The notes under the pieces were generated by a model, which was not told the origin of the DNA, searched no databases, and was given only the letters and a program-made list of their open reading frames with translations. A DNA stretch of 59,150 nucleotides from assembly GCA_028280735.1 (NCBI GenBank), contig JANQLH010000170.1:1-59150 (forward strand), read 5' to 3'. The DNA comes from SAR324 cluster bacterium (GTDB lineage Bacteria > SAR324 > XYD2-FULL-50-16). Positions 36,429-38,075 of the stretch are shown piece after piece; the stretch's first letter is position 1, and each line of letters opens with the position of its first letter. Both the position numbers and the translations under genes were made by a program.

Positions 36429-38075
36429 ATGGATACAACACCTTCACTATCGATCACAAATAAAACCACGACCCGGTTTGGTCGTGAAGATTTGATGAGA
36501 ATTTTTACCGGTCCTGAAAATCGAAAGGACCAGGTTGTGATCAAGCAATTAATCTCCTCCCTGGCCAATGGTATGCACGAATCGTTGAACAGGTATCTTG
36601 GGCACAATCTCTTTGGGGACTATGAAGCATGTCAAAAAAAATACACCAACAGCTTTATCAACGAGTTCCCGGAGATGAACGTTGGAAATGCTCTGGAGGA
36701 ATTGATCGCTGACGTCGCACCTCATTCAGTCAATGTTTCATCTCCTTACTACTCCGGCCACATGACCTCGGCCATACCCTATTTCATGGTCATACTAAAG
36801 GCCATTGTGGCGGCCCTTAATCAAAACGTTGTGAAACTGGAAACATCAGGGATCGTCACAGCTATCGAACGTGAGGTGATTGGAAAGATCCATCGCCTTG
36901 TTTTTCAAAACAGTGATCAGTTTTACCAGGAGCATATCCAAAAAAAACGATCCTGCCTGGGATGTTTTACCGAAGATGGAACACTGGCAAACCTCCAGGC
37001 ACTCTGGATTGCCCGCAATGGCTGCTTCCCACCCAGAAACGAGTTTTTCAGTATCGGTAAGCAGGGCCTGATGACCGCACAAAAGGAATATAATCTCTGC
37101 AAAAGTGTGGTGCTGGTATCGCGTCTCAGTCACTATTCGCTTCAGAAGATTGGGGATGTGCTGGGCATAGGGAATGAGAATATCATTCGTATTGATGTGG
37201 ACCGGAAAAACAGAATGGATATTGATCACTTGTGTGAAATCATTGACAGTATCAAAGCCAGTAAAACAACCAATATCCTGGCTATCGTTGCAACCGCCGG
37301 AACCACCGAGTGTGGCACAATTGACCCGCTTCATGCCATTAGTGAAATCTGTAAGAAAGAAAAGATTCATTTTCATGTGGATGCTGCCTGGGGTGGTCCA
37401 ACACTTCTCTCCGATAAATACGCAGGTTTATTGGAAGGCATTCAGTTGGCAGATTCGGTAACCATAGATGGTCACAAACAACTCTATATGCCGATGACGT
37501 GCGGAATGGTCTTCTTCAGACAACCCCTCGTCAGCGATGCGGTCATCTACTATGCCAACTACATTAACCGTCCGGAATCACTGGATTTAGGTGTAAAAAC
37601 GATTTCCGGGTCGAGGGAGGCAAATTCGCTGATCCTAAGCAGTGCCTTGAAAATCCTGGGTAAAAAAGGTTACGGAGCATTAATCGATCACGGAATCGAA
37701 ACAGCTGGACTGCTTGCTGATGAAATCCTGAAAAGAGATTGCTTTCAACTAGTCAGTGCCCCGGTTCTTAACATACTTAACTACCGTTACCTACCTTCCG
37801 AAATTGCCCGTGGGCATGAGCCCGAAACCATGGATTTTGGAGAGGATACCAACAAACTTTTGAACGAGATCAACCTGGTAATTCACCGGGAACAAAGAAA
37901 ACAAGGTCAGAGTTTTGTTTCGCGAACCATTTTAAATCTGGCAAACGACCCCCACAAAGAAATGGTTGTTCTTCGCAGTGTCATCATGAATCCCATGACA
38001 ACCATTGATGTGCTGCGGTTAATACTGGATGAACAGGAACAAATCTACGCTGCTAATTTCGGAGAATACAAATGA
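36429..38075 (+). CDS. Group II PLP-dependent amino-acid decarboxylase (GAD/PanP/Ddc-like)
   Basis: The 548-aa product has SGHMTS, TEDGTLANLQALWIARN, ATAGTTECGTIDP, HFHVDAAWGG and SVTIDGHKQLYMPMTCG (PLP Lys codon 37476-37478). The substrate cannot be read from the sequence. Its TGA stop overlaps the PKS3 ATG (ATGA at 38072-38075). Confidence 0.85.
   Translation: MDTTPSLSITNKTTTRFGREDLMRIFTGPENRKDQVVIKQLISSLANGMHESLNRYLGHNLFGDYEACQKKYTNSFINEFPEMNVGNALEELIADVAPHSVNVSSPYYSGHMTSAIPYFMVILKAIVAALNQNVVKLETSGIVTAIEREVIGKIHRLVFQNSDQFYQEHIQKKRSCLGCFTEDGTLANLQALWIARNGCFPPRNEFFSIGKQGLMTAQKEYNLCKSVVLVSRLSHYSLQKIGDVLGIGNENIIRIDVDRKNRMDIDHLCEIIDSIKASKTTNILAIVATAGTTECGTIDPLHAISEICKKEKIHFHVDAAWGGPTLLSDKYAGLLEGIQLADSVTIDGHKQLYMPMTCGMVFFRQPLVSDAVIYYANYINRPESLDLGVKTISGSREANSLILSSALKILGKKGYGALIDHGIETAGLLADEILKRDCFQLVSAPVLNILNYRYLPSEIARGHEPETMDFGEDTNKLLNEINLVIHREQRKQGQSFVSRTILNLANDPHKEMVVLRSVIMNPMTTIDVLRLILDEQEQIYAANFGEYK

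Follow-up and report, generated by a model that had tools for sequence, protein, structure and literature searches.

A PanP-type decarboxylase gene within a split module of a trans-acyltransferase polyketide synthase/peptide synthetase operon of a SAR324-lineage bacterium is a candidate source of beta-alanine for the pathway

The kirromycin pathway has a free-standing decarboxylase, KirD, which is a pyruvoyl enzyme of the PanD type and does not depend on pyridoxal 5'-phosphate (PLP). In the bacillamide pathway, as far as it is outlined in PMC8795117, a cluster-encoded decarboxylase prepares the substrate of a non-ribosomal peptide synthetase (NRPS). Beta-alanine itself is a constituent of cahuitamycin. 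JamL of the jamaicamide pathway contains a decarboxylase nested in an adenylation (A) domain, whose function was unclear when it was reported, and nested decarboxylases of this type lack the N-terminal helical domain (PMC3870968); the JamL case goes unmentioned in a 2020 survey of interrupted A domains. Genes may also be placed between synthase genes, as is pedG between pedF and pedH, or contribute to a split module, as does OocK to the third module of the oocydin (ooc) synthase together with OocJ and OocL; both PedG and OocK are flavin oxygenases acting on a beta-keto thioester that is bound to an acyl carrier protein (ACP) (PMC6174933). PanP has been described from Vibrio fischeri (Pan et al. 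2017, as cited in PMC10102598). Here we describe a gene for a PanP-type, group II PLP-dependent decarboxylase (P0001) that lies between two synthase genes of a trans-acyltransferase (trans-AT) polyketide synthase (PKS)/NRPS operon, in a 59,150-nucleotide stretch of DNA from a SAR324 cluster bacterium (contig JANQLH010000170.1). This stretch, subsequently designated the window, is the whole of contig C464 of the metagenome-assembled genome (MAG) G000, and its source DNA are coral metagenomes of one study. We propose that the enzyme provides the assembly line with beta-alanine made from L-aspartate.

Each of the described systems matches this locus in part. As in the bacillamide-type pathways, a cluster-encoded decarboxylase is predicted to prepare an amine or beta-amino acid for the assembly line from a proteinogenic amino acid; there, however, the accepting domain is known, whereas none was found for the window cluster. 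With the JamL type the locus shares the recruitment of a PanP-like group II decarboxylase to a PKS/NRPS line, and the nested domains form the sister clade to that of the window protein. They are covalently inserted and go along with A domains of the beta-alanine type (66/68), whereas the window protein is a separate enzyme of full length, and no such A domain was found. PedG and OocK are comparable in that a non-synthase gene sits between synthase genes at a split module, but a PLP-dependent amino acid decarboxylase would have no plausible substrate on the chain of the window synthases.

The gene and its immediate surroundings consist of the following features.

33462-36167, + strand: KS-DH at the C-terminus of PKS2, upstream half of the split module (KS residues 2429-2805, DH residues 3041-3330; domain map)
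36255-36428, + strand: spacer between PKS2 and the decarboxylase gene, 174 nt, holding a 10-bp hairpin
36429-38075, + strand: PanP-type group II PLP-dependent decarboxylase gene (P0001), 548 aa, predicted L-aspartate 1-decarboxylase (from PF00282, TIGR03799 and clade)
38061-38064, + strand: GGAG, Shine-Dalgarno-like, for PKS3, inside the decarboxylase gene near its 3' end, 7 nt upstream of the PKS3 ATG (from sequence context; putative function)
38072-38075, + strand: ATGA overlap of the decarboxylase stop codon TGA (38073-38075) with the first start codon of the PKS3 frame (read directly)
38222-39304, + strand: DH-like domain and ACP at the N-terminus of PKS3, downstream half of the split module (DH-like residues 51-306, ACP residues 349-411; domain map)

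The reading frame has no internal stop codon, and its product carries HVDAAWGG from residue 316 and DGHKQ from residue 347. Together with the match to PF00282 (Pyridoxal_deC; 154.6 bits against a cut-off of 27, residues 98-453), this confirms the original prediction, made from the letters of the DNA alone, that the gene encodes a group II PLP decarboxylase of 548 residues with HVDAAWGG and DGHK motifs. The placement of the gene proved equally sound: it lies on the same strand as the synthase genes and within the split KS-DH/DH-like-ACP module, between a PKS2 that ends about 28 residues past its terminal DH and a PKS3 in which about 50 residues precede the DH-like domain. These junctions were checked on separate contigs that two other samples of this coral-metagenome study provided. 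With 0 differences, such contigs span the passage from the PKS2 stop codon into the spacer (36085-36333), that from the spacer into the decarboxylase start (36350-36584) and the ATGA junction (38030-38242). The three junctions are thus bridged in independent samples, which excludes an assembly chimera as the origin of the gene order.

Overlaps of 4 nt of the ATGA type are a common kind of operon junction, and the one between the decarboxylase gene and PKS3 is real yet ordinary. It allows translational coupling, and to this extent the proposed co-translation with PKS3 holds; a stronger sense of it is not supported. The view that a tailoring gene at an intra-module junction is unusual was overstated in light of the pedG and oocK precedents (PMC6174933). 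Neither terminator-like nor promoter-like sites were found when the + strand of the spacer was scanned. A riboswitch or other RNA element in the spacer was considered and rejected, given the absence of an Rfam match and an overall fold z-score of -0.58, which is not significant. The spacer does contain a perfect 10-bp inverted repeat at 36258-36292 (CAATAGCTGC ... GCAGCTATTG, loop of 15 nt), which starts 4 nt past the PKS2 stop codon; a T-run is absent downstream, and the repeat is therefore not a canonical terminator. No transposase and no repeat scars were noticed beside the decarboxylase gene. The spacer without a + strand terminator, the ATGA overlap, the GGAG at position -7 and the junctions seen in other samples all speak for an operon.

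In the hidden Markov model (HMM) searches, the decarboxylase matched TIGR03799 (PanP, NCBIfam) with 547.4 bits over model positions 4-522 of 522, whereas the runner-up family, DABA decarboxylase, reached 165 bits. The resemblance to PanP that had been suspected from size and motifs is thereby borne out, as it is by the active-site comparison and the phylogenetic position of the protein. For calibration, the core members of the Desulfobacterales clade score 614-634 bits and pass the equivalog cut-off of the model, while P0002, the nearest relative of the window protein, scores 551 bits and the housekeeping PanPs of SAR324 score 494-531 bits. The window protein stays under the cut-off (547.4 versus 606.1 bits); therefore we call it PanP-type or PanP-clade and not a PanP equivalog. 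It shares with PanP the same fold and length, a full-length HMM match, the Desulfobacterales clade and the conserved catalytic residues, but differs by its score, its long branch, an identity of 48-61% to the nearest database proteins and a PKS/NRPS operon in place of a housekeeping context. Nearly all of those nearest proteins whose source is named come from Desulfobacterales or 'Deltaproteobacteria' MAGs.

To describe the active site, columns conserved to at least 93% over 214 relatives were counted, which gave 62 superfamily-invariant columns. The decarboxylase keeps 60 of them, including H235, D318, H349, K350, Y378 and R516. We take K350 (in DGHKQ) to be the PLP-binding lysine, D318 (HVDAAWGG) the aspartate at the pyridine nitrogen, H235 (SHYS) the ring-stacking histidine and Y378 (ANYINR) the tyrosine of the catalytic loop. 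These roles are also treated in PMC3870968, according to which Arg567 of glutamate decarboxylase (GAD) binds the substrate. R516, located in LRSVIMNP, was matched to GAD Arg567 by motif and through the family-invariant columns; PDB searches with C-terminal fragments, made to align the substrate-binding arginine, were uninformative. Columns that are invariant in Desulfobacterales are kept to 82% in the decarboxylase versus 61-65% in other PanP-type clades. Judging from these alignments the catalytic residues are intact, and L-aspartate is most likely the substrate.

The phylogenetic analyses placed the decarboxylase within the Desulfobacterales PanP clade with a support of 100 (FastTree) and 99.8 (IQ-TREE SH-aLRT). 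Its identity to the PanPs of the SAR324 lineage is 37-40%, whereas these are 55-95% identical among themselves, and forcing it together with the lineage PanP clade was rejected by the approximately unbiased (AU) test (delta log-likelihood 239, p ~1e-63). Separate clade, AU rejection and a different locus therefore identify the gene as a xenolog and not as the housekeeping orthologue of the lineage. The trees indicate that it was acquired by horizontal transfer from a Desulfobacterales-like source and put into the operon. When the PKS2-decarboxylase-PKS3 junction was searched for in four same-genus genomes, only short matches to conserved KS sequence were obtained. The gene is thus not a conserved housekeeping orthologue that occupies the same position in relatives devoid of the PKS, the case that would have refuted the original prediction. 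A codon-frequency correlation of the gene with PKS and housekeeping genes was confounded by amino acid composition and was left unused.

Among clade relatives, 0 of 77 + 4 loci had a KS, C, KR, DH or ACP match beside the gene, and a metagenome scan with P0002 yielded four loci besides its own, none with PKS/NRPS genes. In several Desulfobacterales and metagenome PanP loci (L035, L038, L042, L054, L058, L084, L093, L110), an AMP-binding, acyl-CoA-synthetase-like gene is located directly 3' of PanP, an arrangement that recurs in many Desulfobacterales loci. In two loci of 'uncultured delta proteobacterium' MAGs (L093:10001-11490 and L098:10001-11581), PanP aligns in three frame-shifted pieces, which represent either pseudogenes or assembly indel errors.

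Next, we consider the beta-alanine genes of the host lineage itself. A PanD match was found neither in G000 nor in 30 relatives, nine of which carry a PanP-type gene. In small-genome relatives PanP is part of a conserved locus, livG-livF-PanP-uppS-cdsA-dxr-rseP-panE, which begins with a LIV-type ABC transporter, whereas in the same-genus genome G004 it adjoins an AsnC regulator. The housekeeping PanPs of SAR324 (MDX2469124.1, MDT8448074.1) resemble the window protein in family and predicted reaction, and their genomes are likewise without a PanD match; they differ from it by the low identity given above, by clade and by the liv...panE locus as opposed to a PKS. Comparison of G000 (C475:424-6756) with locus L022 of G006 (7916-16085) reveals that PanP and uppS are gone from the ancestral locus in G000, in which livF ends at 1904 and cdsA starts at 2187; uppS is found on another contig, C299. 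The decarboxylase of the window is the sole PanP-like gene found in G000, and panB, panC and panE are present. The congeners G001 and G002 have kept panB and panC but possess neither PanP nor PanD; therefore, the genus obtains beta-alanine in another way. A group II decarboxylase of 474 aa, present with similar scores in both G000 and G001, may be responsible. Such a role would parallel DVU0867, an atypical aspartate decarboxylase that was studied in an E. coli panD mutant (PMC10102598). Genomes of the host genus (G000 and G001-G004) measure 6.7-8.6 Mb versus ~3 Mb for most sampled genomes of the SAR324 family.

The remaining parts of the operon, and the A domains that could consume the product of the enzyme, are as follows.

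6580-8773, + strand: two free-standing acyltransferase genes (PF00698 matches)
13317-26171, + strand: PKS1, KS-DH-KR-ACP, KS-KR-MT-ACP, KS0-ACP (domain map)
26178-36254, + strand: PKS2, C-A-PCP, KS-KR-ACP, KS-DH (domain map)
27693-29177, + strand: A domain of PKS2 (C-A-PCP module), code DPLQLGVVWK, Gly-like, the only A domain in the window (motif-based code)
38072-59149, + strand: PKS3, frame not closed within the window, DH-like-ACP, KS-KR-ACP, KS-DH-KR-ACP three times, then a KS-DH truncated where the contig ends (domain map)
contig C284, first A domain: code DVWHFSLIEK, Ser-like
contig C284, second A domain: code DLTKIGEVGK, Asn/Asp-like

No AT domains were found within PKS1, PKS2 and PKS3 in domain searches, and the free-standing acyltransferases therefore mark the system as a trans-AT PKS. 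PKS1 lacks a loading module, its first domain being a KS, and no ACP or loader reading frame was found in the gaps upstream of it. Its starter type was also sought from KS phylogeny, in which KS1 stood alone on a long branch without supported grouping, and this approach was given up. At the other end, the open frame of PKS3 extends over 7026 aa. G000 has PKS/NRPS domains on more than 20 contigs. The reverse strand of one of them, C284, opens at DH position ~201 (LDSALQ), whereas the last DH of the window stops at ~187; this strand (L101:1-9000, L102:1-18301) is the probable continuation of PKS3. It reads ACP-KS0-ACP, followed by a protein with C-A-PCP-KS-DH-KR-ACP-ACP-KS-DH-KR-MT-ACP, a C-A-PCP-E-Zn-ribbon-PP-loop protein, a MATE exporter and a PfaD-type trans-ER that is cut by the contig end. 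No TE was seen in the window or in C284. The last recovered NRPS ends in PCP-E without a subsequent C domain. Its last condensation-like domain was tried as an amine-accepting release step and rejected, the best matches being epimerisation domains (TycA-E 2xhg, GrsA PCP-E 5isw). With it the best candidate for the suggested use of the amine as a chain-release nucleophile is lost. An E domain lacking a following C domain, the missing TE, PKS1 without a loader and a cluster that runs off C284 together mean that parts of the line are missing.

Two further observations concern domains of G000. The C-terminus of the last NRPS of C284 (L101:2193-3284, - strand) comprises a Zn-ribbon (CxxC...CxxC) and a PP-loop (SGGVDS) of the WbuX N-acetyl-sugar-amidotransferase type; it matches TIGR03573 nearly over its full length with 157 bits, below the cut-off of 203, and there is a weak PDB match to 8wex. 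As far as domain order tells, a WbuX-like domain fused to an NRPS after an E domain looks unusual. On contig C452 (11883-15110) an adenylation/acyl-ligase-like domain is divided into an N-terminal part (11883-12284) and a core (14061-15110) that lie ~1.8 kb apart, and this may be another interrupted adenylating domain.

For the A domain codes listed above, the Stachelhaus positions were read by motif alignment and compared to reference codes. Among proteins of solved structure, the PKS2 A domain is matched best by the second A domain of LgrA (501 bits), which we take to belong to a glycine module. In an exhaustive search of representatives at 50% identity, PanP-like decarboxylase domains forming part of NRPSs made up 82 of the 150 best relatives of the decarboxylase (P0125-P0270; e.g. 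P0132, P0135, P0141, P0146 = Cyanothece WP_107666519.1 and P0166 = Fulvivirga WP_009579116.1). Mostly they are inserted in the A domain between motifs A5 and A7/A8, and they constitute the sister clade of the clade containing the window protein. Decarboxylase domains of the sister clade interrupt or adjoin 68 A domains, and 66 of these carry an Asp-shifted code, [V/I/A]D...S.[A/G]D. We take the Asp-shifted code ([V/I]D...S.[A/G]D, with Asp at 236) to be of the beta-alanine type. Read in this manner, the count ties the sister branch to beta-alanine supply for assembly lines. At the level of gene context and predicted codes, the wider family is tied to beta-alanine twice and independently, namely by the SAR324 PanP locus, which includes panE in genomes without PanD, and by the A domain codes of the sister clade.

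We favor an explanation in which a stand-alone, full-length PanP-type enzyme converts L-aspartate to beta-alanine and so furnishes the pathway, to which it is dedicated, with a small amine building block. The gene would have arrived as a xenolog of a Desulfobacterales-type PanP, entered the trans-AT PKS/NRPS operon and then diverged fast, and its placement within a split module would reflect operon architecture and not an action on the ACP-bound chain. Probably it is transcribed with the synthase genes, and its translation would be able to couple to that of PKS3 through the ATGA overlap, so that the enzyme would be made when the assembly line is made. We infer this co-transcription and dedication to the cluster, the latter because of the AU test, the empty ancestral PanP slot, the other beta-alanine source of the genus and the lack of PKS/NRPS genes beside the relatives' genes. 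The consumer of beta-alanine may reside in the unrecovered part of the line, i.e. in a missing loading module or in an NRPS protein after the terminal E domain. To the specific claim of a dedicated beta-alanine supply for an unrecovered step of the cluster we assign an even chance of being correct, based on sequence comparison.

Several results weigh against this proposal. In addition to the score under the equivalog cut-off, the branch of the decarboxylase measures 0.74 and is thereby two to several times longer than those of its clade mates (0.02-0.33). G288A and Q486H are changes in otherwise near-invariant columns, and 34 of the 188 clade-invariant columns are changed; therefore a shifted substrate is possible. 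The original prediction had pointed to downstream modules specific for beta-alanine, gamma-aminobutyric acid (GABA) or another amine, but the codes did not reveal any: the three A domains of the window and C284 are Gly-, Ser- and Asn/Asp-like and none is of the beta-alanine, GABA or amine type, nor was such a domain found elsewhere in the MAG. A beta-alanine-type code was present in 0 of ~17 A-type domains across the contigs of G000, a MAG that is 88% complete with 5.75% contamination and in which the cluster is not closed. Moreover, the join of C464 to C284 rests on domain register only.

The missing acceptor may be explained if beta-alanine were made for another purpose. It could feed the synthesis of pantothenate, coenzyme A (CoA) and 4'-phosphopantetheine, either replacing the lost housekeeping PanP or boosting the supply during expression of a line with more than 20 carrier domains and a heavy demand for malonyl-CoA. 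G000 would fit this idea, as the decarboxylase is its only PanP-like gene, a PanD match is lacking, the ancestral slot in the livGF...panE locus is empty, panB, panC and panE are present, and no beta-alanine A domain was found that would use the product otherwise. However, G001 and G002 keep panB and panC without PanP or PanD, so that the genus must have another route, for which the 474-aa group II decarboxylase of G000 and G001 is a candidate. A gene for an essential cofactor would also be poorly regulated if buried in a 60-kb secondary-metabolite operon and coupled to a synthase, and the long branch speaks against strong housekeeping constraint. We therefore regard cofactor supply as unlikely, while keeping it in serious consideration. 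The same long branch can be read as a drift of the enzyme towards glutamate, cysteine sulfinate/cysteate or a substituted aspartate, which would yield GABA, hypotaurine/taurine or another amine for the pathway. This would agree with the score under the equivalog cut-off (a feature shared with P0002 at 551 bits), with G288A, Q486H and the 34 changes in clade-invariant columns, and with the failure to find a beta-alanine acceptor. Yet the catalytic and substrate-carboxylate residues are all kept, and the 82% of clade-invariant columns that are retained exceed the 61-65% of functional PanP-type proteins of other clades. A domain codes for GABA or other amines were not seen either. A changed substrate thus appears rather improbable.

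Alternatively, the gene might be a passenger without a role in the product, left between the synthase genes by a mobile or recombination event. Its xenologous origin, the 174-nt spacer on one side and the lack of a detectable partner are compatible with such a history, but a passenger would hardly be expected to retain an intact frame and 60 of 62 invariant residues despite the long branch, to overlap PKS3 by exactly 4 nt and to harbor the ribosome-binding motif of PKS3; transposase or repeat scars were not noticed adjacent to it. We see only a slim chance for this scenario. Still less can be said for an activity in trans on the ACP-bound intermediate of the split module, although for the oxygenases OocK and PedG the position of the gene in a split module means just that (PMC6174933). 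The mechanism established for group II PLP decarboxylases passes through an external aldimine, which requires a free alpha-amino acid, whereas domain order predicts that the intermediate is an N-acylated, thioester-bound polyketide-glycine chain without a free alpha-amino acid. In addition, the protein is complete as a stand-alone enzyme and retains even the N-terminal segment, which starts at residue 16. Action on the growing chain is accordingly barely credible. Returning to the dedicated supply of an amine, this building block could finally enter the product without any A domain, either by ATP-dependent ligation through the WbuX-type PP-loop domain of C284 or as an ACP-loaded starter for PKS1. 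We consider this a doubtful route. If true, trans-AT PKS/NRPS lines would be seen to incorporate amines or beta-amino acids in a new way, and in the case of PP-loop ligation an NRPS-fused WbuX-like domain would have its first function.

The locus does not represent a new enzyme class or PKS mechanism, as precursor-supplying decarboxylases, both free-standing and fused ones, have precedents in NRPS/PKS pathways. The code statistics for A domains neighboring decarboxylases (66/68) could be a useful addition to the known JamL architecture (PMC3870968). For the host lineage, the gene appears to be a clean example of an enzyme of primary metabolism that was captured by horizontal transfer into a secondary-metabolite operon, with the host's own copy lost from the ancestral locus. 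Beta-alanine or a similar small amine is probably a constituent of the cluster product or a requirement for it. For an orphan assembly line exceeding 85 kb, whose host is a coral-associated bacterium of the SAR324 lineage with a large genome, this offers a concrete and testable chemical hint.

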